From Pyrinomonadaceae bacterium (GTDB lineage: Bacteria > Acidobacteriota > Blastocatellia > Pyrinomonadales > Pyrinomonadaceae), in contig JBGTCF010000146.1 of NCBI GenBank assembly GCA_041748975.1, positions 1-59,770 on the forward strand: DNA of 59,770 bases, written 5' to 3'. Below the pieces are notes generated by a model, which saw nothing but the letters and a program-made list of their open reading frames with translations, had not been told where the DNA came from and did not search any database. The position numbers were made by a program, and so were the translations under genes. Of the stretch, positions 7,423-59,748 are shown in pieces; positions within the stretch are counted from its first letter, which is position 1, and each line of letters opens with the position of its first letter.

Positions 7423-7505
7423 GGCACCCAAAGAGGATGCCTTTAACGCGTTCTAAAGATTGGTGATCCGAGCAGGACTCGAACCTGCGACCCAGTGGTT
7501 AAAAG
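7423..7505 (-). other. Truncated tRNA-Lys 3' fragment plus downstream hairpin (att-type direct repeat, island-distal copy)
   Basis: 7454..7505 is 52/52 identical to 59666..59717. 7461..7505 equals the 3' 45 nt of the tRNA, including CCA. 7423..7453 matches 59637..59665 with mismatches and one indel. Confidence 0.9.
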
Positions 7506-7607
7506 TCTCTTTTTAGTGTTCATTTTGGTTACTTTAAGTTGAGTTTCCTATGTTTCCGTTGTATTGCTGTTTAGATGTGTTCGGCTTAGTTATTGACCAA
7601 CAAGTTG

Positions 7608-7632
7608 ATTTGGCGCACGTCTGGCGCACTTA
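7608..7632 (+). promoter_or_regulatory. ATTTGGCGCAC-GT-CTGGCGCACTTA motif, about 100 bp inside the left island end
   Basis: 23 of 25 identical to 59603..59627, same orientation. Contains an internal direct repeat TGGCGCAC x2. Confidence 0.6.
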
Positions 7633-7828
7633 GCCCCTTGGGAGAGTTGATCGAACTAAATGAAATTGTAATAAAATAATCTGCCTCTGATAGAAATAAT
7701 TTCAGTGGATCCGTCTGACCTCAGAACGTGGTGCAAGTATAATCACTTTAGCCAATCCAAACTTGCCCGGCTGCTGGACGTACCGAATGAAGATCGGCCC
7801 GGTACCAACCTAGAAAAGGATACCGCTC

Positions 7829-8333
7829 ATGATTAAGCTTATAGATACCGCCTATCATGAAGCTGCTCATGCCGTCGTCCAATATCGGGCCTCGGGTTGC
7901 CAGCGGTTCTGCTTCCATAATTCCGCAACCGCCTCTTGGCGGTGCTAGAACCCTTGGCTACGTTACCGACTACCTAACAGATAGCAGCTCAGAATAGGAT
8001 TGCGGGGGGAGGGTTCTAAGTTGTTACGCAGGGGCTGCCATCGATCAGAAGCGGAGATGTTTCAACCCGGACTCGTGCGCAAGCGATGACATAGCCGCTG
8101 CTGAAGTTCTGGGCTTGTGGGGATGGGAAGGACAAGAACAATCATTCCGCAATGAGTCCGCCAGGCTTGTCGATCGACACTGGCCGGCGATCGAAGCGGT
8201 AGCGATAGCGTTACTAAAACGCGAACACCTAGATATGACTGAGATCGAGATCATCGCCGATATTGCGGAGAATGTTGACGGAGCAACCTTAGAAGATTTA
8301 GCGCTGTATCGCGAATTAGCCCATACACCGTAA
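7829..8333 (+). pseudogene. Disrupted zinc-metallopeptidase-like gene (HEAAH motif), preceded by an XRE-like HTH remnant
   Basis: ATG at 7829 gives MIKLIDTAYHEAAHAVVQY, then a stop after 39 codons. The reading continues in other frames past a TAG near 7995 into the 8115..8333 ORF. Upstream, 7700..7800 reads ..NHFSQSKLARLLDVP.. with no start codon. Confidence 0.5.
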
Positions 8334-8864
8334 GAAACGATCCCTTTTGGATATCTTGCGAAATGCTCTTAAATGTATGGGACGTTTCGTTAGAAGAAAT
8401 TTGAAAGACGTCGTGCTGCGATGACCTGATGATTACAAATTCTTTTCAGCCAAAGTTCACTGAGTGTCACCAAGTATCATAGGGCCATATTTACGGTACT
8501 TTGCGAACTCGGTTTGCACCCAGTGACACTCTATGTACGCACATGGTTGCTACATTTCTCGCTACATAAGCTATTCTGACGACACTATCAGGTAACAGGA
8601 GGAAAGTCGGGTGAAAAATGAAAAAGGCGGCCGATTGATCCGCCCTAGTATTAACACTAAATCGGGTGCCTAGCGAGAAAGATGCTTCCAAGTCTGATCA
8701 TCAGTTTTCTTATATATTGTGCCGCTCATAATGTGAGAACGCGGACTCGACGCGGCGGTATTTTTCCTGCTCGACACAAACCTTGAAGTGGGTGTATTTC
8801 GATAAGTCTTAGCATTCGTCAAGGAAAACGAACGACTCGTGTAAATCCCAACTGTGGACGTGAA

Positions 8865-10187
8865 ATGAATGCTAATTTCAAAGTCGAGAGGATTTTTATG
8901 CGATTTTGTTTGAACCAGACCTTTGCGATTTATTTGGTATTGATCATCGTAGTCTTTTCGTCAGCTTACTCCAGTTCAGTTTTAACTACTTCGATAGGAG
9001 TGGCGGCCCAAGCCGCTCCGGTCGTAAATTCGGATCCACCCGAATGCGGAGGCTGTTTGTTTTTGGAAGCACCCGCCAATCTGTCGAATAAGCTCGCGAT
9101 CTTTCCAAATAGAACGGCCGTCGAGCGAGTTCGTATTCGCGGCACGGTTTATGAGTCCGACGGAAAAACTCCGGCCAAAAACGTCGTGATGTATTTTTAT
9201 CAGACCGATGAGACAGGTGCTTACTCGAAACGGGGCGACGAGCCTCGTAACAGCTACGCATGGTGGCACGGCAAGCAGCGTGGTTTTCTCAAAACCAACG
9301 AACGAGGCGAATACCAGATCGACACAATCAAACCCGCTCCATATCCGAGCCAGGACGAGCCGGCGCACATTCACGCGGGCGTCCAATCTCCCTCGCAAAA
9401 ACGCGATTACAGCATCGCTGATTTCGTTTTCGCGGACGATAAACTTCTATCGCCTAAATTCTGGGAGAATACGGCCACCTGGTGGCGCAGCATGGGGGTC
9501 TATCAAAATCCGAACTACGGTGGCTTGAATCTTACAAAGAATAATGCCGGGATTTGGGAAGGCAGGCGCGACATAACTCTCTTTGCGGAATATGATCTGC
9601 CGAAGCCGAATTCAGGCCGCGACATTCTAACAGAAAGCCCCGCGTTCGAGCCGCAGCACGCTTGGGGCCCGGATAAAGGCTCGCACGCCTGTCCCATGTG
9701 CAAGTACGGTTATCAACCCGGCGTTTTGTATTGGGTCAATTCGGACGAGAATTGGAATGAAGTTGAGAATTGGGCGAAATGGCTCGAAGCTTTGAGCGTC
9801 GGGCTCGGCGACAAAAATTTCAAGGCCTATCTAATTTACACCAATCCGAAAAAACTAACCGCCGAACAGTTAGAGGCAAAACTGTCAAATTTTGGGCGAA
9901 GTCTGGACTTGAAAAAGATCGCCATCACCTACGTTCCGAGCGTGGATGATAAGCCGACCGAGACTTATCTGAACCAGATCAACCTGGCGACACGAAACAC
10001 ATTCATCGTTTATAACAACCGGAAGATAGCCGATAAGTTCACCAACTTCACACTCACTGAACAGAATGCGGCCTTGCTCGAGAAATCGGTAGAACGAGCC
10101 GACAGGGACAAGGAATTGTTCAAGTCAAGGACTATACGGACGTTTTCGAAGCCGAGGCCCTCAGGTGGGGGGGTAATTAACAACTGA
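8865..10187 (+). CDS. Secreted intradiol-dioxygenase-like domain fused to a Trx-like CPxC domain
   Basis: IRGTVYESDGKTPAKNVVMYFYQTDETGAY....GEYQIDTIKPAPY....AHIHAG resembles the Dioxygenase_C beta-sandwich. It is followed by ACPMCKYGYQPGVLYWVN. Paralog of 25688..27652. N-terminal hydrophobic signal. Confidence 0.6.
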   Translation: MNANFKVERIFMRFCLNQTFAIYLVLIIVVFSSAYSSSVLTTSIGVAAQAAPVVNSDPPECGGCLFLEAPANLSNKLAIFPNRTAVERVRIRGTVYESDGKTPAKNVVMYFYQTDETGAYSKRGDEPRNSYAWWHGKQRGFLKTNERGEYQIDTIKPAPYPSQDEPAHIHAGVQSPSQKRDYSIADFVFADDKLLSPKFWENTATWWRSMGVYQNPNYGGLNLTKNNAGIWEGRRDITLFAEYDLPKPNSGRDILTESPAFEPQHAWGPDKGSHACPMCKYGYQPGVLYWVNSDENWNEVENWAKWLEALSVGLGDKNFKAYLIYTNPKKLTAEQLEAKLSNFGRSLDLKKIAITYVPSVDDKPTETYLNQINLATRNTFIVYNNRKIADKFTNFTLTEQNAALLEKSVERADRDKELFKSRTIRTFSKPRPSGGGVINN

Positions 10188-10334
10188 GGGAGCACTGAAC
10201 AGAACATTGCAATGCTCACAAAATCGGCTTTAACAAATAGACACGGGATAAGGAACTCAATGAAGAAAGCCGACTGATATCTCTATTGAGTAGATTCCCC
10301 TACCTATTGACCGCAACGTTTTGAAGGAATCAAT

Positions 10335-10757
10335 ATGAAAGAAATGAGGTCCGGAAGAGAGCTGCACTTAAGGATTTACGCGGTCGCTGTCACGTTAATT
10401 TCCGGATTGTTGGTGTGGCAACACATCAACATTCCTGACGAACCCGCGCATTTCGAACTCTTGGAAGCTCGAAAAGAATCAGGCTTGCCGACCGAGCGTC
10501 CCCTTATAACGGAGAACGTGTTCGCTAAAAGTGAGTTCGCTGCCCGTGGACTTTTTTTCGGCAAACTCGGAGACGAGGCGAACGTCGTCAAGATATTCGA
10601 TGAAAATGGAAAGCAGCGCCTCACGCTGCAGTTCTCATCGGACGGGCCAGCCAAGCTTGATTTTATGAACGAATCGGGAGAAATCGTTTACAGCTTACCC
10701 GAAGACAAATCGCGAAAAACAGTTCTGCTTGGCGAGAAGGAAGCGATAAATCATTAG
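10335..10757 (+). CDS. Hypothetical membrane-anchored protein (paralog of 28769..29509)
   Basis: One N-terminal TM segment. C-terminal motif RLTLQFSSDGPAKLDFMNESGEIVYSLPED is shared with the 28769 ORF. Confidence 0.5.
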   Translation: MKEMRSGRELHLRIYAVAVTLISGLLVWQHINIPDEPAHFELLEARKESGLPTERPLITENVFAKSEFAARGLFFGKLGDEANVVKIFDENGKQRLTLQFSSDGPAKLDFMNESGEIVYSLPEDKSRKTVLLGEKEAINH

Positions 10758-29509: not shown

Positions 29510-29532
29510 TTCCTTCGAGGACACTTAAAAAA

Positions 29533-44661: not shown

Positions 44662-44762
44662 CACCGATTGTCGTCGAAACCTTTGGTTTAGAATGGGTTA
44701 GGCATACTCGGCATCGTACTTAAAGGGCCCGCGTGTGCCGGGCGGGCGCCATCCGTCGGATT

Positions 44763-47027: not shown

Positions 47028-47073
47028 ATCTTTCTATTTCTTTTATCTTTATCGACCCCGTCATGTTTCTGGG

Positions 47074-47107
47074 TTTCTAGGTACACGTATATACGAATAC
47101 CTAGAAA
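47074..47107. promoter_or_regulatory. 34-bp near-perfect palindrome TTTCTAGGTA-CA-CGTATATACG-AA-TACCTAGAAA
   Basis: Read directly; lies between the primase-helicase stop and the next gene's start. Confidence 0.6.
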
Positions 47108-47123
47108 ACCTGGAAACCGAGCT

Positions 47124-48929
47124 TTACTCCTCAACATCACTAAGGACTTCGTAGACATACGGTTTCCCCCGCTTACCCTCCCCTTCTCGACCAATTTTGG
47201 CTTCATCAACCAATTCCCTCAGAGCTTTCGCCAGAATACCGTGATTGAATCCCTCGATCCGCTCTTTGATTACCTTCTCCTCCAGCTTTTCGTCCGGCGA
47301 AAAGACCTCTAAAATCGCAGACTTCGCTTTCGCTCGGGTTAGGTGACTCAGATCGCCCATTCCCCTTATTATGCCGGTATCGTTGTCCAATTCGACTACG
47401 GTTTCTGGCATATCCTCACCGTACCTCTGCGTCGTCATCAACGTTCGTCGACCGTCTTTCTTTCTCATTTGAATATGACAGTCAACTGACCCAAAAAGAG
47501 CTGTAGAGCCTAATAAAGCGTCGCCTCCGGTCCGGTCCATTTTCGAGTCGTGATGCAAAGCGAGTATATGGCATCCGCTTCTGCGGGCGAGATCGATAAA
47601 TGGCTCAAGTCCTCTGGACATGGATCCGTAATCATTAAAATCGCGAACCCGTAATACTCTGGACAACGGATCGATAATCACGAGGATCGGTTGATACTCT
47701 GCTATCGCTAGTTCGAGTTCTTTTATCGCTTCTTCCGGGGTCGCCCCAGTGTGTATGTAAATGTCGTCGCAATTCTGGTCCATACGCTCGAAATGGTTAC
47801 GAACCTCCGAGCGTTTTTCTTCGAGGCAAAGGTATAACACCGGTCCTTTCGAAGTCGGACGGTCGAGGAACGCCGATCCAGAGGCAACAGAAACTGTGAG
47901 ATTTCGTGCCACGGTTGATTTGCCGACCTTTGGCTTTGCCGAGCAAAGTGAGAACCCCCCACACGGAAGGGTTCTGTCCCATACAAACGAAATTTCCTCA
48001 GCCGGCTCATTTAGTAACTCGTTAAGCGTTGTGAAATGGAATTTTGAGGTGATGATCGCCGCCCCAGCAACGTTAGGCTTCCAAGGATCGGCGCGTTGGA
48101 CCAGATCCATTAGATCATCTGCCGTTCCACCATTTTCAATGAAACCACTAACATCCCCTTTATCCGGCAGACCCGGAAGGTTTACGATCAGCGTCTCTTT
48201 CGTAATACCATTCAAAGATTCCGCAACGCTCGCCGAATGGTCGAGGCCCGCGCCGTCATTATCAGGCAGGATGACAACGACCTTGCCCTCGAACCATCGA
48301 TTGAACTTCGACTTCCACTTCCCCGCTCCGAACGGGTTACACGTACCGGTTAGACCAACGCTTCGTAGAGTTTCAACATCTTTCTCTCCCTCGACAATGT
48401 AAATCAAATCAGATTTGACCACCTCTGGTAGGTTATAAGGAATCAACTCGACACCCTTCAAGTTATAGATCCATCCGTCTGCCTTCGGGGCCTCGCCCTC
48501 ATGCTGCCGTCGTTTGGCGACGAAATCCTTGTCCTCGCTGCCGTCGCGATATGTCAATTTTAGCCTCACAATCGTGTAAACCGGGTCACCCCGCACATCC
48601 AAGTAGTGGTAATCGGCAACCGGCTCCTTCGAAATGGGTGCACCTCTCTCTGACTTAGCTTTTTTGAAAGCGTTCTTCGACGAATGGGACGATCCGTCCT
48701 GTCGCGCCGTAGCAATCTCGTACCCTGTATTGCCCGAGAGACTTGGACGTATGGCGTTTATCACTTCTTCATAAGTGCAACCCGCATGACAATGAAGGAG
48801 CAATATACCGCCCTTCTCAGTAATACTTAATGAAGGGTTCCGATCGTCGTGGGCCGGACACAGCGCCATGTACCCATGCCCGTTCTTCTTCACTCGCTCG
48901 AGGCGGATCAAGACTTCCTGGAGATTCAT
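47124..48929 (-). CDS. Primase-helicase (CHC2 zinc finger + Toprim + RecA/RepA-like P-loop ATPase)
   Basis: CPAHDDRNPSLSI...HCHAGC, Toprim IVEGEKDVETL / ILPDNDGAGL, Walker A AKPKVGKST, Walker B LVIIDPLSRV. The start at 48929 has a GGAGGTG RBS and an ATGA overlap with the upstream ORF. Confidence 0.85.
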   Translation of the reverse strand: MNLQEVLIRLERVKKNGHGYMALCPAHDDRNPSLSITEKGGILLLHCHAGCTYEEVINAIRPSLSGNTGYEIATARQDGSSHSSKNAFKKAKSERGAPISKEPVADYHYLDVRGDPVYTIVRLKLTYRDGSEDKDFVAKRRQHEGEAPKADGWIYNLKGVELIPYNLPEVVKSDLIYIVEGEKDVETLRSVGLTGTCNPFGAGKWKSKFNRWFEGKVVVILPDNDGAGLDHSASVAESLNGITKETLIVNLPGLPDKGDVSGFIENGGTADDLMDLVQRADPWKPNVAGAAIITSKFHFTTLNELLNEPAEEISFVWDRTLPCGGFSLCSAKPKVGKSTVARNLTVSVASGSAFLDRPTSKGPVLYLCLEEKRSEVRNHFERMDQNCDDIYIHTGATPEEAIKELELAIAEYQPILVIIDPLSRVLRVRDFNDYGSMSRGLEPFIDLARRSGCHILALHHDSKMDRTGGDALLGSTALFGSVDCHIQMRKKDGRRTLMTTQRYGEDMPETVVELDNDTGIIRGMGDLSHLTRAKAKSAILEVFSPDEKLEEKVIKERIEGFNHGILAKALRELVDEAKIGREGEGKRGKPYVYEVLSDVEE

Positions 48930-49447
48930 GCCCACCTCCTGAGATGTATGCCAATGTTCTGGAGAACTCGCTCGATCAAACGTTCCGCAGCCTTCGCGTC
49001 GAGTGAAAGCACTAGTTGGAGGCAATCTTTGCAGATCACCGGGCACGATGTTAGGCGATCGAAACCGACCGGCGAATTACAGCGGTAGCAGCGGAACAAA
49101 CGAATGACCCTGTTTCGCCGCGGTTCCGGGTTCTTTTCTTCGTTCGTGCGCTCCGTGCTTTTTTCAGTTCGTCGGGTGAAAAGACAGTCCGAGCACCGTG
49201 GCGTCGCCTTTCCTCGCAGTTCATAGGTCCGCTTCACTTGCCTTCTGCACTTATCGCACCGTATCGAAGGGGCCTCTCCCTCGGGCTTGTATTCGTGTGA
49301 TATAATCAGCGTTGTTAGACCTTTGATCTGTGAGTTCATTTCGGGGTTTGATCCGGTGCCGAAGCTCGAATCTTCGGCACTTTCTTTATCTGTATTCCAA
49401 AAATCTTTGTTACTTTTCATCCTGTTCTCCTCCTTGAAGGTTTCCAC
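48926..49447 (-). CDS. Cys-rich (double zinc-ribbon-like) hypothetical protein
   Basis: CDKC...CSDC and CYRC...CKDC pairs; translationally coupled to the primase. Confidence 0.45.
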   Translation of the reverse strand: METFKEENRMKSNKDFWNTDKESAEDSSFGTGSNPEMNSQIKGLTTLIISHEYKPEGEAPSIRCDKCRRQVKRTYELRGKATPRCSDCLFTRRTEKSTERTNEEKNPEPRRNRVIRLFRCYRCNSPVGFDRLTSCPVICKDCLQLVLSLDAKAAERLIERVLQNIGIHLRRWA

Positions 49448-49610
49448 CTTCTTCGAGCCATCGCGTTACTGCGTTTTTCGAAAATCTGTATTGCCGTTCA
49501 CCTAGACGTATTACCGGGAGCAGCCCTCTTCGAGCCAGTTCGTAAACACGTTGCCGGTCAACTCGCAACAATTCAGCCACCTCATCTGCTACCAAAATAG
49601 ACTTGTCCAT
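49410..49610 (-). CDS. Excisionase/MerR-like HTH DNA-binding protein
   Basis: VADEVAELLRVDRQRVYELARRGLLPVIRLGERQYRF; RBS GGAGGTG before the ATG at 49610. Confidence 0.65.
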   Translation of the reverse strand: MDKSILVADEVAELLRVDRQRVYELARRGLLPVIRLGERQYRFSKNAVTRWLEEGGNLQGGEQDEK

Positions 49611-49769
49611 TTCAATCACCTCCCAAAAAAAAGAGTCCGGTACGAGAATTCCTCGTCCGGACTCAAGATCGCCTATCCAAAATGGAAGCGTCAAAAGATT
49701 TTTTTGAATATTCGTAAAAACGCCTGGCTAATTCGGAAGATGCAAAACCGGTCTTTGCTCATTCCACCT

Positions 49770-50924
49770 CTAAGTGCATTGTTTTCTGTTACTTACATTT
49801 TTTCCTTGCCCAAAATATTTCTTCATTGTCGAATAGGCAATTTCCGGAAACTCGAGCAAATGGATCGCATGGCTCATTGCAAATGCCTCGGGCTTTTCTT
49901 CGGCTGACAATCTCCGAAAATCGCTTGCTTGGCCTTCCCATGCATTGACTGCTTTATTCCAAAGGGCGGTGGGGGCAGTTATAAGGTCAGTCTCAGATCG
50001 CAACCACTGGTTTATCCGATAGTCAAAATCCTTGTCAACAAGTTCCTTGTGAGCAAATGTCCAAAGTGGCTGCCCATCTTTGTGACGCAGTCCATCCACC
50101 TTGTCGTGGAATTCCCGTTTCCGATCATCTGTCCACACAAACTTCTCAGTTGTTCGGCGGCCACCTCTTTTTATCCCGAGCCTTTCATTAGAGAAGCGTC
50201 TTCCGTGCCGGAAAAAAGTGTCCATAATCTTTCCAAAAAACTCGCGGTCCATTGTTTCACCCATGGTATCCCTTATCATCCCTTCGCTCGCCATTATTCC
50301 CTCCATCAGCATACGGCCCGTAATTTCAACAATGATACTAGGTGTCGCCCGCTCGATTTGCGACCTTACGTTGTCTTCAAAACGTTCGACCGAATCATAA
50401 AATCGCTCTCGCGTCAGGTCATTCTGAACAACCCGATCAATCTCGGCCTCAGCCGCTCGGAGACCAGCCGGCCCTAGGTCGGGTTCTTTCGCAGGAATTA
50501 TTAAGCAATCCATGACTTGATCGAGGTTATAAAGAGGCTCTTCGTCAAGGACATTCTCTATAAGGTCCACCGCGATCCGATACCGGATAGCAAGGAGGAT
50601 GCCCGAAGCCTTTATGCCGATGATAGCCAATAACCTCAGTTCGATTTGACTTGCCCAAAGTAGGATCGAGACGGCGCGGCATAGGATCATAAGTCCCCTA
50701 ATTGGCTCTTCGCGAAAGACTTCTATCCGAACTTCGGAAAAAAACTCTAAATTAGCGATAACAGAAATGAAAAGGCTGGAATCAGTTTCGGCAGCCGGTA
50801 ATGTCTCTGGATCGCATTTAAGACGTTCGGGCCAATTACTGGTTATCTGTAGTATTATGTCGACAATACGCGCCTTTAACTCCGGTTCGGAGAGACAGCT
50901 TAGATCATCGTAGATGAGGTACAT
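49770..50924 (-). CDS. Hypothetical 384-aa protein, no recognisable motif
   Basis: Long ORF co-oriented with the replication module, lying at its junction with the Type I R-M operon. Confidence 0.5.
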   Translation of the reverse strand: MYLIYDDLSCLSEPELKARIVDIILQITSNWPERLKCDPETLPAAETDSSLFISVIANLEFFSEVRIEVFREEPIRGLMILCRAVSILLWASQIELRLLAIIGIKASGILLAIRYRIAVDLIENVLDEEPLYNLDQVMDCLIIPAKEPDLGPAGLRAAEAEIDRVVQNDLTRERFYDSVERFEDNVRSQIERATPSIIVEITGRMLMEGIMASEGMIRDTMGETMDREFFGKIMDTFFRHGRRFSNERLGIKRGGRRTTEKFVWTDDRKREFHDKVDGLRHKDGQPLWTFAHKELVDKDFDYRINQWLRSETDLITAPTALWNKAVNAWEGQASDFRRLSAEEKPEAFAMSHAIHLLEFPEIAYSTMKKYFGQGKNVSNRKQCT

Positions 50925-51143: not shown

Positions 51144-52616
51144 ATGATCACAGGCGAACTCAAGGCTCAGGTTGATGCTGTTTGGAATGCCTTTGCGGCC
51201 GGTGGAATATCCAATCCACTTGAAGTCATTGAGCAGGTAACTTTTCTGCTGTTTATTAAGCGGCTCGACGATCTCCATACGGCGAAGGAAAAGAAGGCGA
51301 ATTCTCTGAAGCGTGAGATCGAAAAGCCCATATTTGGGTCGGATCAACAAGATTATCGATGGTCGCGGTTTAAGAATCTTGAGGCTGGCAAGATGTTCTC
51401 GACGGTAGCTGATGGTGTGTTTCCGTTTATCAAGACCTTTTCGGGCGACGAGACGACGTATGCGGCGTTTATGAAGGAGGCGCGGTTGTCGATACCAACG
51501 GCTGGGCTGTTGACTAAGGTTGTCGATCTGATCGATCAGATCCCAATGGACGACCGCGACACCAAAGGCGATGTTTACGAGTATATGCTTGGCAAGATCG
51601 CGTCGGCGGGCCGTAACGGGCAGTTTCGCACGCCGCGGCATATCATCAAGCTGATGGTCGAGATGGTCGCTCCTAAGCCGACGGATGTTGTTTGCGATCC
51701 GGCGTGCGGTACTGGTGGCTTCCTGGTTGCGGTGAACGAATACCTCCGCGATCACCATAAGGAAATATTCCAGGACAATGCGCTGACGGAACATTTCTAT
51801 AAGCGGCTGTTCAACGGATTCGATTTTGATAATACGATGCTGCGGATCGGGAGTATGAATATGATGCTCCACGGAATCGACAACCCGAATATCCGCTACA
51901 AAGATTCTCTCGCAGAGGAACACTCGGCTGACGATTCGCGGTATTCGCTGATCCTCGCAAATCCGCCGTTCGCCGGGTCGCTCGATGCCGACATAACGGC
52001 AAAAGACCTGCAAAAGGTCGTCAAGACAAAAAAGACCGAACTGCTCTTTCTCGCGTTGTTTCTAAAGCTGCTCAAAACCGGCGGACGTGCGGCGGTCATT
52101 GTGCCGGACGGCGTTTTGTTCGGTTCGTCTAATGCTCATAAATCGCTGCGGCAAATTCTGGTCGATGAGCAAAAACTGGACGGCATTATCTCGATGCCGT
52201 CGGGTGTTTTCAAACCCTACGCCGGTGTCTCGACCGCCATTCTGCTGTTTACGAAGACTAATTCCGGCGGCACGGACAATGTCTGGTTCTACGACATGAA
52301 GGCCGACGGCCTCTCGCTCGATGACAAACGCAGCGAGCTTGATGGCTCAAAGCACGAAACCAACAATTTGCCGGACATTCTAGCTCGCTGGCACAATCGG
52401 GCTGCTGAAGTTGTACGCTCAAGGACGGATCAGTCGTTACTCGTTCCAAAATCTGAGATAGCCGCGAATGATTACGATCTGAGTATAAATCGCTATAAGG
52501 AAGTTCAATACGATGAGTTCGAACATGCTTCACCGACACAGATATTAGCGGAACTCGATCAATTGGAAAATGAGATTCAGGCGGATTTGAAAGCATTGAG
52601 GGCGATGATCGGATGA
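51144..52616 (+). CDS. hsdM: Type I R-M methyltransferase subunit HsdM
   Basis: N-terminal HsdM_N-like helix bundle, motif I DPACGTGGFL, motif IV LANPPFAGS. Confidence 0.9.
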   Translation: MITGELKAQVDAVWNAFAAGGISNPLEVIEQVTFLLFIKRLDDLHTAKEKKANSLKREIEKPIFGSDQQDYRWSRFKNLEAGKMFSTVADGVFPFIKTFSGDETTYAAFMKEARLSIPTAGLLTKVVDLIDQIPMDDRDTKGDVYEYMLGKIASAGRNGQFRTPRHIIKLMVEMVAPKPTDVVCDPACGTGGFLVAVNEYLRDHHKEIFQDNALTEHFYKRLFNGFDFDNTMLRIGSMNMMLHGIDNPNIRYKDSLAEEHSADDSRYSLILANPPFAGSLDADITAKDLQKVVKTKKTELLFLALFLKLLKTGGRAAVIVPDGVLFGSSNAHKSLRQILVDEQKLDGIISMPSGVFKPYAGVSTAILLFTKTNSGGTDNVWFYDMKADGLSLDDKRSELDGSKHETNNLPDILARWHNRAAEVVRSRTDQSLLVPKSEIAANDYDLSINRYKEVQYDEFEHASPTQILAELDQLENEIQADLKALRAMIG

Positions 52617-53887
52617 TTTCTGACTTCCCATTAGTTCGAATCGGAAATATTGTCGATGCTATTTCGACATGCAATCCGAGCACTCTAAAAACGACGTCAT
52701 CTTTTGAGTACGTGGATATAAGCTCTATCAATCGAGATAGCAAGCAAATTGAAGGAACGACAGTCATCCCCGTCAATGACGCCCCGAGCCGTGCGCGTCA
52801 AATAATTAAGTCTCATGACATATTAGTTTCTACTGTCCGACCTAATCTCAATGCTGTCGCTCAGGTGCCGCCCCGTCTTAACGATCAAATAGCTTCAACG
52901 GGATTCACCGTTCTTAGACCGCAAAAATTGCACCTTGATGACCGATACCTCTTTCATTGGGTAAAATCGCCCGCTTTCGTTTCGCATCTCTCGAAAGAAG
53001 CAACGGGTGCGAGCTATCCAGCGGTTAGCGACAAGATTGTGAAGGATACGAGCATTCCGTTGCCGCCGTTGGGCGAGCAAAAGCGGATCGCGGAGGTTTT
53101 GGATAAAGCGGACGCTCTCCGCCAAAAACGCCGCCGCGCCCTGCAAAAACTCGACACGCTTCTCCAATCCGTCTTCCTCGAAATGTTCGGCGACCCAGTT
53201 AGGAATCCGAAAGGTTGGGATACTCGCACTCTTCCCGAGCTAATTCTTCCGGGTAAGAACTCCTTAAAACGTGGACCATTTGGCGGTACATTGAAAAAAG
53301 AAATTTTTGTCGATTCGGGGTACTTGGTATACGAACAATATCACGCGCTTAATAATGATTATTCATTCGGTCGGTATTTCATCACTGAAGAGAAGTACAA
53401 GGAACTCATCGGCTTTAGCGTCAAGCCAAATGACATAATAATTAGCTGTTCTGGAGTATATCTCGGAAAACTCTCAATAGTTCCTGACGGGGCAAAACCT
53501 GGAATCATAAACCAAGCACTCCTCAAGGTTTCCCTTGATCAAGAAAAAATGAAGACAGTTGTGTTTGCATACATCTTCGGAAGTTCTCAATTCAAGAGAA
53601 AGTATTTTCCATCAAATCGTGGAGTGGCAATACCAAACCTACCACCAATGGATGTTATGAAGAAGATTGGATTCATTACGCCGCCTCTTGAGATTCAGCA
53701 AAAGTTTGCCGACAACGTTAATAGAATCTACGCGATAAAGAAACGATATGAAATCGGAACGACAAGTCTAGAGAATTTGTTTTCGTCCATTCGGAATAGA
53801 GCATTCAAAGGCGAACTATTTGAAACGAGTATGCCCTCGGTAGGATTCGAACCTGAAAACGCATGGCAACAAACTTTGCATTCCTAA
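52613..53887 (+). CDS. hsdS: Type I R-M specificity subunit HsdS
   Basis: Two TRD halves separated by conserved helices (LPPLGEQKRIAEVLDKADAL... and PPLEIQQKFADNVNRIY...). ATGA overlap with hsdM. Confidence 0.9.
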   Translation: MISDFPLVRIGNIVDAISTCNPSTLKTTSSFEYVDISSINRDSKQIEGTTVIPVNDAPSRARQIIKSHDILVSTVRPNLNAVAQVPPRLNDQIASTGFTVLRPQKLHLDDRYLFHWVKSPAFVSHLSKEATGASYPAVSDKIVKDTSIPLPPLGEQKRIAEVLDKADALRQKRRRALQKLDTLLQSVFLEMFGDPVRNPKGWDTRTLPELILPGKNSLKRGPFGGTLKKEIFVDSGYLVYEQYHALNNDYSFGRYFITEEKYKELIGFSVKPNDIIISCSGVYLGKLSIVPDGAKPGIINQALLKVSLDQEKMKTVVFAYIFGSSQFKRKYFPSNRGVAIPNLPPMDVMKKIGFITPPLEIQQKFADNVNRIYAIKKRYEIGTTSLENLFSSIRNRAFKGELFETSMPSVGFEPENAWQQTLHS

Positions 53888-53980
53888 CGAATTGTGCAAC
53901 CGAAACCTACGAAGGAGGCATCTTTTCACTTGCCTAAATTGTAGGATGTAAGCTACATTTAGTTAAAGTGATCATGATTG

Positions 53981-54301
53981 ATGAAAGTTCAGTACTACGT
54001 CACGGCAGAAGGCAAAGAGCCATTTACGAAGTGGTTAGGTCGCCTGAGAGACAAGGTTGCTCACGCTGCGATCCTTACGAGGATTGCTCGGATCAAACTT
54101 AATCTTCCTGGCGATCACAGGTCCGTCGGGGGTGGTGTGTATGAATTTCGAGTCGATGTTGGGGCCGGATATCGGGTTTACTTCGCCCAGTCCGGTAAAG
54201 AGGTTGTTTTGCTTTTGTGCGGCGGGGATAAAGATTCCCAGGACGCAGATATCGTAAAAGCCAAAGAATATTGGAAGGATTATAAGAAAGCAAACGAGTA
54301 A
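53981..54301 (+). CDS. higB: HigB/RelE-superfamily toxin (addiction-module killer type)
   Basis: ..EPFTKWL..L.D.....I..RI.R..L.. GD.RSVGGGVYEFRVDVGAGYRVYF...G..VVLLLCGGDKDSQ..DI..A. Confidence 0.75.
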   Translation: MKVQYYVTAEGKEPFTKWLGRLRDKVAHAAILTRIARIKLNLPGDHRSVGGGVYEFRVDVGAGYRVYFAQSGKEVVLLLCGGDKDSQDADIVKAKEYWKDYKKANE

Positions 54302-54310
54302 AGGAGCTAC

Positions 54311-54802
54311 GTGGCGGCAAAAAAGAAACAAGAACGAGTACGTGATTTCGACGATTATTTGGTTAAGGCTCTGAAAGATCCTGAATTGGCCAGCGAATAT
54401 TTAAATGCTGCGATGGCTGACGGGGACATCCGCGTTTTTCTGATGGCACTTGGCGATGTTGCGAAGGCGGTAGGCATGTCCAAGATTGCCGCGGCAACTG
54501 AGCTTGACCGTGCAAATATATACCGAGCGGTGTCGGATGCCGGCAATCCGTTGATAAGCACTGTCGCAGCAATACTGGACACGATCGGACTTCGATTAAC
54601 CACCGAACTTATCCATAAAGAAGTTTCAGTTATCGAACCTCCTTCAAGAGTCCTAGCTTTTGAAACGCGGGCCGGAATGCAAGCGGCTTTTCAACCGATC
54701 GGCGGTGTTTACGAGGCTCCGGGGATCGAAGTAAACGAGTATGGTCTGCAGGTTCCGTCAACGGCACCAGCCGCTAATCAAGAATTAGCTTTAGCCGCAT
54801 GA
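54311..54802 (+). CDS. higA: HigA-type antitoxin (addiction-module antidote HTH) with a C-terminal extension of about 60 aa
   Basis: ..DPELASEYLNAA..DGD...FL.ALGDVAKA.GMSKIA..T.L.R.N.YRA.S..GNP...T..A.L...GLRL; it then continues about 60 aa beyond the usual end. GTG start. Confidence 0.7.
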   Translation: MAAKKKQERVRDFDDYLVKALKDPELASEYLNAAMADGDIRVFLMALGDVAKAVGMSKIAAATELDRANIYRAVSDAGNPLISTVAAILDTIGLRLTTELIHKEVSVIEPPSRVLAFETRAGMQAAFQPIGGVYEAPGIEVNEYGLQVPSTAPAANQELALAA

Positions 54803-54819
54803 TAAACGCTTAAACGACT

Positions 54820-55329
54820 ATGGGACAAAGTCCGTTAGCAATCAAGAAATATTTCCTTCAATCTCTGAATTTTCATTTGAAAACAGGGTTTGAATTTGGG
54901 CAGGTTGCGGCCGCTCCCGAGACGGTAATGCCGAATGTCCAAGTGTCTGTTCAATACGCGCAAGATCCACAGGAACCGCTCGAATGGCGCGTGGTTCTTG
55001 ATATCAAAGGCGGAACTGATGTTGAGCCTTTTCCATATACTTTCGACGCAGCTTTCGCTGGTTTTTTTCGCGTTGCTGACAACTACCCTCTGGAGCAGCG
55101 AGTGCTTCTTGTTCAGGTAAACGCTCCGTCGATCCTTTATGCTGCAGCACGAGAGTTTCTTTCCATAGTCACGGCTCGATCGCCGTATCCGCCGATATTG
55201 CTCGGATCGGTGTCGTTTGTGCCCGATCCACCTTCGGATACAACTAAGCCGGTAGCTGCCAAAAAAGCGAAGCCGAAGATTACAAAGAAACCGGCCCTAA
55301 AGAAGCCGGTGAATAAGGCTAAGAAATAA
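54820..55329 (+). CDS. SecB-like chaperone with a Lys/Pro-rich basic tail
   Basis: VNAPSILYAAAREFLSIVTARSPYPPILLGSVSF parallels the E. coli SecB segment [32 protein letters not shown]. The tail is KPVAAKKAKPKITKKPALKKPVNKAKK. Confidence 0.7.
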   Translation: MGQSPLAIKKYFLQSLNFHLKTGFEFGQVAAAPETVMPNVQVSVQYAQDPQEPLEWRVVLDIKGGTDVEPFPYTFDAAFAGFFRVADNYPLEQRVLLVQVNAPSILYAAAREFLSIVTARSPYPPILLGSVSFVPDPPSDTTKPVAAKKAKPKITKKPALKKPVNKAKK

Positions 55330-55371
55330 TCCCGACACTGATTAGGAAAACTCGAGCACTGGCGGTTATAA

Positions 55372-58300
55372 ATGCCCACAAACTTCGCATTCTTAAAAAA
55401 TGAATGGCAGGAGATCTATTCGACTGCCATTAAAGCCGAAAGTCTGGCCAATACCGATCCGGGCACGGCCTGCTTTCACGCGCGCCGGACGCTTGAACTT
55501 GTCGTTAATTGGATCTACACGTATGACGAAGAACTGACACAGCCATACGACAATCAGCTAAGCACTAAACTTCTCGATAACGGTTTTAAGGACAACACTC
55601 CGCCGGGCGTGTTTACCAAAATGATCTTTATCAAGAATATCGGCAACAAAGCCGTTCACTCTAACAAGGTTATTTCGACCGGAGACGCCGTTCAGACCGT
55701 CCGCGAACTCTTTCACATCCTCTATTGGATGGCCCGCAGCTACACGCAGGGCGACGCTTCGCAGTTTGACGGCGTTGAGTTTGTAGAGGCAAATGTCCCG
55801 GGCAGACAGGTGTCGATCCCCGTCAATACATTCAACCAGCTCAAGGCCGTTTATGAAGACACAAAAGCAAAGGCCGCCGAGGAAGCCGAAAAGCAAAAAC
55901 AACAAGCTCTCGTCGAACCAACGATCGATGCTGAACTCGAACGTCTCCGCAAACAGGTCGCTGCCGCCAAGCGTAAAAACGAGCAGCATCCGGATACGCA
56001 CAACTACTCCGAGGCCGACACCCGCAAACACATAATCGACCTGCTGCTAACCGAAGCCGGCTGGACGATCGGCCAAAACGTAACCGTCGAACTCGAAGTC
56101 GCCGGAATGCCGAATAACGAAGGCGTCGGGTATGTCGATTACGTCCTTTTCGGCGCCGACGGCAAGCCACTGGCTGTTATCGAGGCAAAGAAGACGGCAG
56201 TTGATGCCTATGTCGGCAAACAGCAGGCAAAGCTCTACGCCGATTGCATCGAGGCAAAATATGGCCGTCGTCCGGTTATCTTCTACACGAACGGCTATGA
56301 GATCCACCTGTGGGATGACACCAACTATCCGCCGAGACTGGTCCAGGGATTTTACACCCGAGACGAACTCGACCTGATGATCCAACGCCGCGAAATGCGG
56401 CTGCCACTTCGTGATAATGACATAAATACCGACATCGTCGGACGCCATTACCAGACCCGGGCTATCACCCGAATGGCCGAGAATTTTACGGCAAATCGTC
56501 GAAAGGGTTTGCTCGTAATGGTTACCGGAGCCGGTAAGACCCGTACAGTGATTGCTCTCTGTGATCTGCTGCAGCGTGCAGGTTGGGTAAAGCGCGTTTT
56601 GTTCCTCGCCGATCGAGTGGCACTCGTGAAACAAGCATCGAATGCGTTCAAAGCGCACCTGCCAAACTCAAATCCGGTAAATCTGCTAAACGATCGCGGT
56701 GCGACCGGCAGCCGTGTCTTCCTAAGTACATATCCAACGATGATGAACCTCATCAACGAAATGGACGGCGACGAACGGCGTTTCGGAATCGGTTATTTTG
56801 ACCTTGTGGTCGTTGACGAAGCTCATCGTTCGATCTATCAGAAATATAAGGCAATATTCGAGTATTTTGATTCGTTTCTTGTTGGTCTGACAGCAACGCC
56901 CAAGGGCGAGGTCGATAAAAACACGTATCAGATGTTCGACCTCCAAACAGGCGTTCCAACCGACGCTTACGACCTGGACGAAGCGGTCGCGGATAAGTTC
57001 CTCGTGCCTTCCGTGAATATCAGCGTGCCCACTCGGTTCATCCGCGAGGGGATTAGCTACGAGAACCTATCCGAAGAAGAAAAGACCCAATGGGACGAGA
57101 TCGAGTGGAACGAAGACGGCGAAGCGCCTGATCACATTGATCCGGCCGCACTCAACAACTGGCTTTTTAACCGCGACACGGTCGACAAGGTTCTCAAATT
57201 CCTGATGGAAGCCGGCCTCAAAGTCGAAGGCGGCGACAAACTCGGCAAGACAATAATCTTTGCAAAAAACCGCCGCCATGCCGCCATGATCGTCGAGCGA
57301 TTTGACGCAAACTATCCTCATTTGAGAGGCCAGTTTGCCGCTGCGATCGACTACAAAACAACTTACGCTCAAAAGCTGTTAGACGATTTCTCGACTGAAT
57401 CGAAAAATCCTCAGATCGCGGTTTCCATCGATATGCTAGACACGGGCATTGATATTCCAGAAATCGTTAATCTCGTATTTTTCAAAGCCGTTAGGTCCAA
57501 AACAAAATTCACGCAGATGATCGGGCGAGGAACACGGTTGCGGCCAGATCTGTTCGGTCTCGGGCAAGATAAAGAGTTTTTCTACATTTTTGATTACTGT
57601 CAGAATTTCGAGTATTTCAATCAGCGTGTGACTGAGGTCGATTCGGCCTCGCAGGCTTCGCTGACGGCAAAGATCTTCGGCAAGCGGGTCGAACTAATCG
57701 ACACGATCCGGCAAATGACTGAAAGATCTGACGAACTCGCCAAAATGGATCAGACTCTGACTGAAACTCTTCAATTGACCATCGAGGCGATCAATATGGA
57801 GAACTTCGTAGTGCGTCCGCATCGCCGCGAGGTCGAGAAGTTTCGAGATCAAAAAGCCTGGGAAAAGCTCGATGCTGAAAAATATTATGAATTGACGAAG
57901 ATCGTCGCCGCTCTCCCGACCGAATTGGATTCCGAAGACGAAACGGCGAAACGGTTCGACCTGCTGATGTTCAAGTTGATGCTGACGATCCTCAGTCCGC
58001 ACCGCGATTACGACAAATTACGTGATCAAGTGATGGAGATCGCAAACCGCCTCGAAGAAAAGGACAATTTGCCGATGGTGCACGAGCAGATCGAGCTTAT
58101 TCAGGAACTTCAGCGGGACGAATATTGGCGGGATGTGTCCGTTCCGACGCTCGAACAGGTTAGGAAGAAAATTCGGCTTCTGGTCCAGTTTATCGACCCG
58201 ACACAACGGCAGATCATTTACACCGACTTCGAGGACGAACTAAGTTCTCCCGACGAGATCGTCTACGGCCCGTCTGCAACCGGTCTGACGCGGTACAAGA

Positions 58301-58755
58301 CTAAAGTCCTGCACTTCCTTAAAAATGAAGAAAACAATATCGTTCTGCAAAAGCTCAAGCGAAACAAACAGATCACGCCGAGTGACATTCGCGAATTAGA
58401 ACGAATCTTGTTCGAATCCGGCGAACTCGGAACCCGTGAAGATTTTGAACAGGCGTTCGGAAAGCAAGAAAAACTCGGCCTTTTCATCCGCAGCCTGATC
58501 GGCCTCGACCGCCACGAAGCGAAGCTCGTCTTCGCCGACTTCCTCGACGGCCAGCGATACAATTCAAATCAGATCGAATTCGTAAATCTGATAATCGACT
58601 ACGTCACAAAAAACGGTGCGATGGATCCCGCGATGCTATATGAATCTCCTTACACCGACTACAACCCAAACGGCGTAAACGGCGTATTCTCCGATGGTGA
58701 AGCTGGGAAGATCGTTGAACTACTCGATGAAATTCGCTTAAATGCGGCTGCCTGA
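55372..58755 (+). CDS. hsdR: Type I restriction enzyme HsdR with an N-terminal DUF4145-like extension
   Basis: 1127 aa. N-terminal ~130 aa are DUF4145-like (..FHARRTLELVVNW...IGNKAVHS), followed by a coiled coil. Then a PD-(D/E)xK N-domain (EADTRK...YVDYVL....AVIEAKK), helicase motifs VTGAGKTRT and VVDEAHRS, and an EcoEI_R_C-like C-terminus. Confidence 0.9.
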   Translation: MPTNFAFLKNEWQEIYSTAIKAESLANTDPGTACFHARRTLELVVNWIYTYDEELTQPYDNQLSTKLLDNGFKDNTPPGVFTKMIFIKNIGNKAVHSNKVISTGDAVQTVRELFHILYWMARSYTQGDASQFDGVEFVEANVPGRQVSIPVNTFNQLKAVYEDTKAKAAEEAEKQKQQALVEPTIDAELERLRKQVAAAKRKNEQHPDTHNYSEADTRKHIIDLLLTEAGWTIGQNVTVELEVAGMPNNEGVGYVDYVLFGADGKPLAVIEAKKTAVDAYVGKQQAKLYADCIEAKYGRRPVIFYTNGYEIHLWDDTNYPPRLVQGFYTRDELDLMIQRREMRLPLRDNDINTDIVGRHYQTRAITRMAENFTANRRKGLLVMVTGAGKTRTVIALCDLLQRAGWVKRVLFLADRVALVKQASNAFKAHLPNSNPVNLLNDRGATGSRVFLSTYPTMMNLINEMDGDERRFGIGYFDLVVVDEAHRSIYQKYKAIFEYFDSFLVGLTATPKGEVDKNTYQMFDLQTGVPTDAYDLDEAVADKFLVPSVNISVPTRFIREGISYENLSEEEKTQWDEIEWNEDGEAPDHIDPAALNNWLFNRDTVDKVLKFLMEAGLKVEGGDKLGKTIIFAKNRRHAAMIVERFDANYPHLRGQFAAAIDYKTTYAQKLLDDFSTESKNPQIAVSIDMLDTGIDIPEIVNLVFFKAVRSKTKFTQMIGRGTRLRPDLFGLGQDKEFFYIFDYCQNFEYFNQRVTEVDSASQASLTAKIFGKRVELIDTIRQMTERSDELAKMDQTLTETLQLTIEAINMENFVVRPHRREVEKFRDQKAWEKLDAEKYYELTKIVAALPTELDSEDETAKRFDLLMFKLMLTILSPHRDYDKLRDQVMEIANRLEEKDNLPMVHEQIELIQELQRDEYWRDVSVPTLEQVRKKIRLLVQFIDPTQRQIIYTDFEDELSSPDEIVYGPSATGLTRYKTKVLHFLKNEENNIVLQKLKRNKQITPSDIRELERILFESGELGTREDFEQAFGKQEKLGLFIRSLIGLDRHEAKLVFADFLDGQRYNSNQIEFVNLIIDYVTKNGAMDPAMLYESPYTDYNPNGVNGVFSDGEAGKIVELLDEIRLNAAA

Positions 58756-58827
58756 TCTTAGACAATTTCCGAACACTAAAATCACAAACCGAGGCTTTGA
58801 AACTGAATAAGAAGGGAAACTAGGTTT

Positions 58828-58857
58828 TCTAGGTACGCATAATAGCTTCTACCTGGA
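58828..58857. promoter_or_regulatory. Imperfect palindrome TCTAGGTA-N14-TACCTGGA related to 47074..47107
   Basis: Shares TTCTAGGTAC and the same 14-nt spacer length as the 47.1-kb palindrome; one arm mismatch. Confidence 0.4.
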
Positions 58858-59013
58858 TACCCAGAATTCTTTTTCAAGCCTTTTGGCAAAAATCGATTCT
58901 CATATATTCTGAAATATGAGAGGCCTAATGCTATGTAAGACTTGGTTTGACGCCAGGTATCACCGTAAGCATTGGGCCTTTTAGCGCCTATTTTAAGGAG
59001 GACTACGAATCAA

Positions 59014-59547
59014 ATGACAAATAGCCAGACCGAGAACGCAGAAATACTGCCTCTCAAAATGTTTGCTAAGTTAGAAGACGCAATCGCGATCGCCGCCCAG
59101 GCTCACAAAGGCCAAGTCGACAAAGCCGGCGGCGAGTACATAATGCACCCTCTCAGGATGATGATGCGAATGGAAACTGAAGATTCAAAGATCGCAGCCG
59201 TCCTTCACGATGTTGTCGAGGATAGCAAACCTGAAGACAAATGGACCATCGGACGTCTCGCCGGTGTGGGATTCTCAAATGAGGTTCTTGAGGCAGTTGC
59301 GTGTCTGACAAAAGCCGACGGTGAGCCCTACGAAGATTTTATCGACCGGGCTGCATCCAATCCGATCGCACTGCAGGTAAAGATCGCCGATCTCGAAGAC
59401 AACATGAACCTGCTAAGGCTCAATCATATTCGTCCAAAGGATCTTGAGCGGCTCGAAAAGTATCATCGGTCGTGGAAAACCCTCAAACAGCTTTCGGATA
59501 AGATCATACCCGAGAAAAGAAGCGGTGATCTAAACAAATATGCATAG
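59014..59547 (+). CDS. Stand-alone HD-domain protein of the RelA/SpoT hydrolase type (small alarmone hydrolase-like)
   Basis: AHKGQVDKAGGEYIMHPLRM and AAVLHDVVEDS motifs. AAGGAGG RBS 12 nt before the ATG at 59014; the ORF track begins at a TTG at 58972. Confidence 0.7.
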   Translation: MTNSQTENAEILPLKMFAKLEDAIAIAAQAHKGQVDKAGGEYIMHPLRMMMRMETEDSKIAAVLHDVVEDSKPEDKWTIGRLAGVGFSNEVLEAVACLTKADGEPYEDFIDRAASNPIALQVKIADLEDNMNLLRLNHIRPKDLERLEKYHRSWKTLKQLSDKIIPEKRSGDLNKYA

Positions 59548-59602
59548 CATGAAAATAGTCTATGTAGATATGGATAACCCCTCAAAAGCCCGGGGATTTA
59601 AA

Positions 59603-59627
59603 ATTTGGCGCACACCTGGCGCACTTA
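59603..59627 (+). promoter_or_regulatory. ATTTGGCGCAC-AC-CTGGCGCACTTA motif just inside the right island end
   Basis: 23 of 25 identical to 7608..7632, same orientation; 39 bp from the repeat core. Confidence 0.6.
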
Positions 59628-59655
59628 AAAGAAAAAGGCACCCAGATAGGATGCC
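59627..59655 (-). terminator. Rho-independent terminator of tRNA-Lys
   Basis: On the minus strand: GGCATCC-TATCT-GGGTGCC followed by TTTTTCTTTT. Confidence 0.7.
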
Positions 59656-59717
59656 TTAACTGTTGTAAAGATTGGTGATCCGAGCAGGACTCGAACCTGC
59701 GACCCAGTGGTTAAAAG
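59637..59717 (-). other. att-type direct repeat, tRNA-proximal copy
   Basis: 59666..59717 is identical to 7454..7505; 59637..59665 is homologous to 7423..7453. Confidence 0.9.
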
Positions 59718-59748
59718 CCACTTGCTCTACCGACTGAGCTATCGGACC
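59673..59748 (-). tRNA. tRNA-Lys (anticodon UUU), 76 nt with encoded CCA
   Basis: Folded by hand. Acceptor GGTCCGA/TCGGATC (one G-U), D arm GCTC/GAGC, anticodon arm AGTGG-CTTTTAA-CCACT, T arm GCAGG-TTCGAGT-CCTGC, discriminator A, CCA. Confidence 0.95.

Follow-up and report, generated by a model that had tools for sequence, protein, structure and literature searches.

A perfect tRNA-Lys repeat brackets a 52-kb, probably composite integrated island in a Pyrinomonadaceae bacterium

The contig JBGTCF010000146.1 of a Pyrinomonadaceae bacterium (assembly GCA_041748975.1), whose 59,770 nucleotides are called the window below, carries about 52 kb of DNA bracketed by two copies of the 3' end of a tRNA-Lys(UUU) gene. 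On balance, we read this region as a composite island anchored at the tRNA-Lys gene, formed by accretion or recombination of related elements together with a prophage fragment and rearranged afterwards. Its composite make-up is evident from two decayed internal attachment (att) sites, one beside the integrase gene and the other of tRNA-Thr type, from at least three compositional classes and from a truncated prophage block. The original prediction had left a choice between one very large island and tandem or accreted elements that had lost an internal att copy, and these features fit the second alternative best.

Attachment sites at the tRNA-Lys gene

The only tRNA gene of the window, tRNA-Lys(UUU), lies at 59673-59748 on the minus strand, where ARAGORN and Rfam (RF00005, 73.3 bits) both place it, in agreement with the original prediction. 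As had also been predicted, the 3' 45 nt of this gene (59673-59717, from the anticodon loop) and the 7 nt downstream recur at the other end of the region: positions 7454-7505 are identical to 59666-59717 at 52/52 nt, and the exact match stops at either end. The gapped similarity is broader (7414-7511 versus 59628-59723, 88.8% over 98 nt, E = 1.6e-29) and bears out the weaker homology that had been noted through the terminator hairpin. It spans two hairpins, both of which fold better than shuffled sequences (z = -4.6 and -4.7). The left stem-loop (7423-7453) matches the right-hand hairpin at 17/19 positions, and the latter is followed by a U-tract.

A second repeat, TGGCGCAC-NN-CTGGCGCACTTA, not listed in the original prediction, was found only at 7611-7632 and 59606-59627, and none is expected in 100 shuffles. 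It forms a paired motif on the left P' arm and on the right P arm, and the motif variant GGCGCAC is common to both. Furthermore, the right end of the window (59597-59751) aligns with the related locus L024 (11130-11286) at 83% identity, the alignment beginning just past the stop codon of the L024 integrase gene. The paired motif was also considered as native sequence downstream of tRNA-Lys genes. This was rejected, as the motif stands behind the integrase stop codon irrespective of which tRNA is targeted, and is present on P' arms as well.

Family-typical arms at both ends of the bracket argue that the repeat is the product of integration by the integrase family described in the next section. 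Judged by their sequence, the two ends of the bracket represent genuine att sites (attL and attR) of a Blastocatellia integrase-AlpA-primase element family. The reading of the repeat as the att signature of a tyrosine integrase, already proposed in the original prediction, is borne out by these arms and by a clade of integrases (66-68% identical to that of the window) whose genes adjoin tRNA-Lys.

The left copy of the repeat, or its joins, could in theory have come from chimeric metagenome assembly at a repeated tRNA/att sequence. The metagenome contig ends 53 nt past the right repeat, near-identical att modules of related elements coexist in such samples (for example L036-L038), and the mismatched att ends of the related locus L030 could themselves be chimeric. 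However, four independent Logan contigs (L001, L002, L003 and L110) are 100% identical to the window over 44.5-46.8, 10.7-20.7 and 57.1-59.7 kb. One of them, the k=31 contig L110 (run SRR28170472), equals window positions 57130-59695 and ends exactly 30 nt (k-1) inside the right repeat; such a stop is expected where the reads continue leftwards from the 52-mer into two different contexts, and thus fits a true repeat. In addition, the left end possesses a specific P' arm with the motif variant of the right end. An assembly artefact is therefore very improbable. The features of the bracketed region are collected in Table 1.

Table 1. Features of the bracketed region and its ends, with positions in the window
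Feature	Position	Strand	Evidence
Terminator-type hairpin, distal (chromosome-side) flank of attL, downstream of tRNA fragment	7423-7453	-	-17.1 kcal/mol, z = -4.6
attL core, left copy of the 52-bp repeat	7454-7505	-	identity to 59666-59717
P' arm with paired motif TGGCGCAC-GT-CTGGCGCAC at 7611-7632, +106 from core	7506-7640	+	motif search
Decayed genes: small HTH open reading frame and frameshifted HEXXH metallopeptidase-like gene	7705-8333	+	short broken open reading frames only
Fossil half att site of a tRNA-Thr(UGU)-type relative	8423-8566	+	L038 similarity
Host-like accessory block	8865-31161		Pfam; composition
Giant 3018-aa Ig-like / F5/8 type C surface protein gene	31486-40542	+	Pfam; GC 56-60%
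Truncated prophage packaging block: 162-aa, 244-aa and large-terminase-like proteins	40526-43684	+	PHROG 38 large terminase subunit, 7e-16
Fossil P arm and core, right downstream of integrase, inverted relative to tRNA	44639-44751	-	alignment with canonical integrase-to-tRNA spacers
Tyrosine integrase, the only one in the window	44763-45959	-	PF00589 and PF14659; PHROG 1, 2e-75
Conserved element module	46246-50924	-	Pfam, PHROG; order as in L024, L030, L035, L044
Module: 133-aa protein		-	
Module: TerS-like protein	46644-47027	-	
Module: primase-helicase	47124-49046	-	
Module: 173-aa protein		-	
Module: AlpA/HTH_17 excisionase-like protein	49410-49694	-	
Module: 384-aa protein		-	
Defence cargo: type I restriction-modification hsdM, hsdS, hsdR	51144-58755	+	Pfam; PADLOC MTase_I 2e-192, REase_I 8e-175
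Gp49 (HigB-like) toxin / HI1420 (HigA-like) antitoxin / SecB-like chaperone, between hsdS and hsdR	53978-55329	+	Pfam
RelA/SpoT-type HD gene (small alarmone hydrolase-like), last gene before P arm	59014-59547	+	
P arm: paired motif 59606-59627 and element-supplied tRNA terminator hairpin	59597-59665	+	L024 alignment; fold z = -4.7
attR core, right copy of the 52-bp repeat, within intact tRNA	59666-59717	-	exact identity
Intact tRNA-Lys(UUU)	59673-59748	-	ARAGORN, Rfam

The element family in related genomes

The window integrase has 6598 homologues at E <= 1e-30, and those with a named source are labelled Blastocatellia, Pyrinomonadaceae, Aridibacter, Chloracidobacterium or Acidobacteriota. An opposite-strand tRNA begins 71-123 nt past the integrase stop codon in 19 of the 33 best metagenome loci (L028-L060, with 38-68% integrase identity to the window), and likewise in L024 and L026. 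In these 21 related loci the same layout was observed, in which the integrase gene is followed by a paired motif, a hairpin and the 3' end of the tRNA. The spacer always contains the pair TTGGCAC(A/T)C-N3-(T/A)(A/T)GGCAC(A/T)C, then a terminator hairpin, then the tRNA 3' end, and the pair occurs once per locus, right behind the integrase gene. Five of the family's P' arms possess two 6-9-mers in tandem at +106 to +136 from the core: at +106 in the window, +111 to +123 in L030, +109 both in L038 and in the tRNA-Thr-type fossil of the window, and +129 to +136 in L040.

Among the informative contigs, tRNA-Lys(UUU) is the target of the clade that is 66-68% identical to the window integrase (L024, L030, L031 and L028; in L028 a 1.4-kb insert separates the integrase gene from the tRNA). 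Thr, Arg, Ala, Met, Cys or His tRNA genes are the targets among more distant clades. The gene order (cargo)-384aa-HTH_17-x-primase-(TerS-like)-integrase is common to the window, L024, L030, L035 and L044. In L030 a complete canonical unit of about 10 kb lies between P' arm and P arm, so that the 52 kb of the bracket does not match the family in size. Three parts make up the left side of L030: a terminator, a tRNA fragment of 45 nt and a P' arm, in which the motif stands about 110 nt from the core. From these comparisons, we assign the window integrase to an apparently undescribed family of integrase-AlpA-primase elements. These elements are small (about 10 kb), and the family is widespread and abundant in Blastocatellia/Pyrinomonadaceae. 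Searches of IMG/VR for integrase relatives returned only distant ones, at 36% identity or less.

Several relatives carry cargo between the integrase gene and the P arm, namely a kinase-TPR protein in L046, a DUF4238 protein in L108 and a protein of unknown function in L028. The nearest integrase homologue (75% identity) is that of L108, whose contig stops short of the att site. No direct repeats were found within 10 kb upstream of the integrase gene in the relatives L024, L045 and L057.

Some individual loci deserve a separate description. In L030, the fragment opposite the tRNA-Lys end is the 45-nt 3' part of a tRNA-Arg(TCG) (1120-1360 of MWVX01000016.1), so that the two att ends differ in type; this mismatch reflects either an internal att fossil or a metagenome chimera. 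In L038 (2100-2400) and L040 (4292-4600), the integrase gene is followed by a P arm, a tRNA 3' half and then non-tRNA DNA, which is a P' arm. By their sequence these junctions are of the attP type and stem from tandem arrays or excised circles, a hint at activity of related elements in the L038 and L040 samples. In L029 (3134-3400), the arm motif behind a 68%-identical integrase gene is interrupted after TTTGGCA by an apparent transposase gene, as after the insertion of an insertion sequence.

The mosaic interior of the bracket

The integrase gene of the window lies 13.7 kb from the tRNA gene and faces away from it, and the entire module to which it belongs is inverted with respect to all 21 relatives. 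Conversely, the canonical P arm and tRNA of the right end (59597-59748) are preceded by the HD gene and not by an integrase gene, contrary to the family layout. Right downstream of the integrase gene, a decayed att site was recognized. Its paired motif, GGCGCCCGCCCGGCACAC at 44733-44750, is the third and last motif pair of the window, and its core, CCTTGCGACCCAATGGTTAA at 44639-44658, lies at +105 to +121 from the integrase stop codon, with the same spacing as in L024. The core agrees with the L024-type tRNA-Lys at 19/20 positions, a score equalled by 20/20000 shuffles (p about 0.001), and the junction between this fossil and the integrase gene is also present in the independently assembled Logan contig L001. 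The 30 nt that would be expected to form the T-arm and acceptor stem are unalignable. A decayed tRNA gene at 44.6 kb was rejected, given that no tRNA-like fold or T-arm was seen and that ARAGORN and Rfam were negative. When the window was searched for a second Lys core or direct repeat around the integrase module, nothing was detected besides the inverted 17-20-nt fossil; a match to TAACCATT at 51.0 kb was not significant (p about 0.33) and was discarded as a module-bounding repeat.

A second fossil, of tRNA-Thr type, is located near the left end. It is made up of an 18-nt fragment of the anticodon arm (8423-8440) and a P' arm, on which a GCTACAT motif pair stands at +109. The fragment matches the 3' half of tRNA-Thr at 18/18 positions, which was reached by 0/20000 shuffles, and the att junction of L038 shares 71% identity with the whole segment (8423-8566; E = 4.6e-12). 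Between attL and this fossil only decayed genes were found; the motif AYHEAAHAVV of the metallopeptidase-like gene is separated from its C-terminal part by a frameshift, and the fragment had no match in Pfam. Both internal fossils (44639-44751 and 8423-8440) retain only the part from the variable loop to the anticodon loop, the T-arm/acceptor part being unrecognisable. Uniform decay alone does not explain this pattern of retention.

These fossils bear on the simplest account of the region, in which a single coherent island arrived by one integration, with no accretion, and the fossils are chance similarities. The perfect 52-bp repeat, the well-preserved matching arms and the lack of an intact internal core copy agree with such an account. 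It nevertheless appears improbable, because the fossil beside the integrase gene has the family motif, the canonical spacing and a 19/20 core match, and the tRNA-Thr-type fossil matches L038 at E = 4.6e-12. Moreover, the integrase module is inverted relative to 21 relatives, the composition is heterogeneous and the terminase block is truncated.

Composition was followed as dinucleotide (delta*) and tetranucleotide usage. Three stretches resemble one another (delta* 15-53), namely the left flank, 8.8-31.4 kb and 51-59.6 kb. The integrase module takes an intermediate place (delta* 63-88), and 31.5-44.5 kb is a strong outlier (delta* 97-137). These k-mer profiles, among the checks suggested in the original prediction, resolved three compositional classes, but only 31.5-44.5 kb stood out clearly, while 8.8-31.4 kb resembled the flank.

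The outlier segment comprises the gene for the giant surface protein (31486-40542), which differs from every other block by a delta* of 97-137, and the terminase block. The 244-aa protein and the large-terminase-like protein (TerL) of the latter are syntenic with those of the IMG/VR genome UViG_3300018481_000046 (31% and 71% identity). The genes behind TerL in that genome are missing from the window; the terminase block is therefore a truncated prophage remnant. TerL had no match among sequenced phages, and the unknown proteins at 40.5-44.5 kb had none in PADLOC, NCBIfam and Pfam. Between the giant gene and the beginning of the terminase block there is an overlap of 17 nt. The two are GC-rich outliers (53-60%), although a delta* of 97 also sets them apart from each other, and they may have arrived together.

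The host-like block to the left of the outlier contains genes for two dioxygenase-like secreted proteins, DUF5916/CBM9, peptidase MA, a TonB-type outer-membrane barrel, GNAT, a peroxiredoxin, an amidohydrolase, a LytTR two-component pair, a dienelactone hydrolase and a beta-lactamase-fold protein. In Pfam, neither housekeeping nor mobility genes were recognized in it (8865-31161). One can ask whether this block is native DNA, caught between att sites by rearrangements between related elements, in which case the mobile DNA would amount to only about 15-20 kb (44.6-59.7 kb, the prophage remnant and the short fossils at 7.5-8.6 kb). In its usage of dinucleotides and tetranucleotides the block agrees with the left flank, and it consists of ordinary acidobacterial accessory genes without mobility functions. 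The elements of relatives appear small, and L030, the sole relative with both arms in view, measures about 10 kb. In addition, the inverted integrase module is an evident rearrangement, and L030 displays att ends of mixed tRNA type. On the other hand, the block starts about 300 nt behind a P' arm (8441-8566), in a cargo position and on the element side of both P' arms, and native DNA could be placed there only through deletions that would remove the 5' half of the tRNA. Its orthologues are non-syntenic in the nearest genomes, so it is not conserved core chromosome, and the left flank that serves as the host reference is itself likely to be acquired DNA. We consider this trapped origin of the block, together with the small mobile portion that it entails, rather unlikely, although it is the rival account to which we give most weight. 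Under the composite-island reading, the host-like block may be cargo, in view of its start about 300 nt past the P' arm and its place on the element side of both P' arms.

Within the block, the gene for a dioxygenase-like secreted protein is duplicated together with a small neighbour (8865-10757 versus 25688-29509, with 50% and 36% identity). Homologues of this protein adjoin a LytTR histidine-kinase/response-regulator pair, also in metagenome-assembled genomes (MAGs) of Bacteroidota (loci L006, L008 and L009), which suggests that the dioxygenase-like protein and the LytTR pair may constitute a conserved functional module.

At the right end, the restriction-modification, toxin-antitoxin-chaperone and HD genes occupy the site at which relatives carry cargo between the integrase gene and the P arm, once the inversion is allowed for. 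The SecB-like chaperone matches the PADLOC model PD-T4-9_C. The HD protein matches HD_4 and TIGR00691, both under the curated cut-offs, and the exact protein is also encoded in Logan contig L110. A 45-nt palindrome, TTTCTAGGTA-N-TACCTAGAAA, is present upstream of the HD gene (58822-58866) and in the gap between the TerS-like and primase genes (47067-47111). Its two copies suggest common regulation, possibly through a shared operator, of the HD gene and the integrase module. For the 384-aa protein of the module, Pfam, NCBIfam and PADLOC gave no match. Most of the gene content listed in the original prediction was recovered inside the bracket, that is the integrase, AlpA/HTH_17, the primase-helicase, the TerS-like and TerL-like proteins and the type I restriction-modification system. 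By contrast, the type III restriction-modification system proved to lie outside it, in the left flank.

This flank (1-7453) contains, besides the type III system, an IS200-type transposase gene, a VOC/glyoxalase-like gene and gene fragments. The type III system spans 905-6703, with the IS200-type transposase gene (3706-4272) between mod and res. A 37-nt direct repeat with one mismatch (6818-6855 / 7294-7331) surrounds the VOC/glyoxalase-like gene (6862-7221, minus strand), and it includes the 3' end of a truncated open reading frame ending in ...AYNGGSSGVALIGMG. Because of this inclusion, the VOC/glyoxalase-like gene resembles a cassette whose insertion produced a long duplication of the target.

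The best genome matches of the left-edge gene were MAGs of Pyrinomonadaceae and Chloracidobacterium (68-77% amino acid identity). A scan of genome contigs with this gene for an empty site yielded distant relatives only, with no synteny beyond one neighbour and no tRNA nearby. Look-ups of exact proteins had matches for the integrase, GNAT and the HD gene (ATG start) only, all in short Logan contigs, too short for an empty site; the HD gene with a TTG start, mod, the dioxygenase-like protein, VOC (both start variants) and hsdR were not on record.

Proposed history and relation to known systems

In the proposed history, a tyrosine integrase specific for tRNA-Lys(UUU) would exchange strands in the anticodon loop, and the element would provide a new tRNA 3' half with a U-tract terminator, as suggested by the anatomy of the ends and by what is established about tyrosine integrases. 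A 52-kb mosaic would then have grown as related elements accreted and recombined repeatedly by site-specific events, and would later have been reshaped by at least one inversion and several deletions; this is the most economical history. The left part of the mosaic corresponds to the distal P' arm with decayed genes, followed by the fossil half att site of a tRNA-Thr-type relative. The middle holds about 23 kb of host-like accessory genes, at the position of cargo in relatives, and then a compositionally foreign 13-kb segment with the giant, adhesin-like gene and the terminase block. The right part is the inverted family module with its own decayed P arm and core, with defence and counter-defence cargo set against the intact P arm. 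That decayed elements lacking an integrase can accrete at att sites is well established (PMC5704250). Excision of the whole 52-kb block would in principle still be possible, since the outer attL and attR as well as the integrase and AlpA are intact.

Several points weigh against this reconstruction. The foreignness of the whole 52 kb, and of the host-like block of about 23 kb in particular, is only putative; at 8.8-31.4 kb the composition of the DNA cannot be told apart from that of the left flank (delta* 27-39), and mobility genes are lacking there. As the left flank also consists of accessory DNA, the true chromosomal boundary may lie elsewhere. The inversion has neither recognisable inverted repeats nor a flanking direct repeat. 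Finally, no intact internal 52-bp core is present in the window, although tandem accretion in situ should leave one, and the perfect outer repeats would also fit one recent integration of an already composite circle. These perfect outer repeats and the missing inner core tend to favour a recent single integration of the composite over its assembly in this genome.

A more speculative idea, which we think has little chance of being right, is that the Lys and Thr fossils, and the Arg fossil of L030, record switches of tRNA target, or else att relics that serve as landing pads. In the first case, the module of integrase and attP would be swapped and the old half-site would stay behind; in the second, some elements would land on resident att relics instead of the tRNA itself. 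Both fossils of the window keep, besides an arm, only about 18 nt of their tRNA, which run from the variable loop to the anticodon loop and are presumed to be the core site of the integrase. If relics were indeed landing pads, islands would be self-extending platforms that capture defence and host genes.

In classical tRNA-linked islands and prophages, a tyrosine integrase inserts the element at the 3' half of a tRNA gene, here in the anticodon-loop class; Williams is said to have classified such integration sites in 2002. Like these islands, the region has an intact tRNA at one end and a repeat of its 3' part, from the anticodon loop, at the other, an element-supplied 3' half with terminator, and a tyrosine integrase with an AlpA-like excision factor. 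Unlike them, it has its integrase gene 13.7 kb off the tRNA, inverted and with a decayed att site of its own; it holds inner att fossils of two tRNA specificities, and its host phylum is Acidobacteriota. The region thus has the defining features of a tRNA island except the adjacency of the integrase and a demonstrated empty site.

A second comparison concerns phage-inducible chromosomal islands (PICI) and P4-like satellites, which combine integrase, AlpA, primase-replicase and small terminase genes in about 10 kb with defence cargo (de Sousa et al. 2023, PMC10085698). The integrase, TerS-like, primase-helicase and AlpA content of the window module and the size of L030 (about 10 kb) are similar, and so are restriction-modification and other defence genes at fixed cargo positions. 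In contrast to these satellites, no capsid-morphogenesis, Psu/Delta/Sid or other hijacking genes were recognised in the window, and a helper phage was not identified. Integrase, AlpA and primase alone make up an ambiguous 'Type C' signature, and the text of that paper does not mention Acidobacteria (PMC10085698). Since no capsid-hijacking genes or helper phage are known and the signature alone is ambiguous, the module was not classed as a satellite, and its membership of this group is not established.

The region also recalls cis-mobilizable elements (CIMEs), for which tandem accretion of integrative elements with decayed, integrase-less partners at one att site has been reviewed (Guedon et al. 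2017, PMC5704250). Generations of related elements at one tRNA, integrase-less cargo bounded by att-derived sequences and a composite with intact outer att sites that could move as a unit are common to both, whereas the inner att sites of the window are degenerate, one of them being inverted and one of a different tRNA type. In the Pfam scans, which covered all major open reading frames, no relaxase, coupling protein or type IV secretion domains were detected; the region is therefore neither an integrative and conjugative element nor an integrative and mobilizable element. Site-specific islands have also been reported at the single-copy ssrA gene of Dehalococcoides (PMC3146451). These likewise have a small stable-RNA gene as target, an environmental non-model phylum as host and niche-specific cargo, but the region differs from them in target gene, integrase family and cargo.

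Composite islands bracketed by tRNA repeats are already well known, and the general concepts are unchanged by this case. The attB and attP junctions that it predicts are directly testable in the reads of the source metagenome. The arm motif is universal among members of the element family, whose targets include at least seven tRNA species. For a soil phylum that is poorly studied, the window offers a worked example of the way in which tRNA-anchored elements accumulate, rearrange and carry defence systems.

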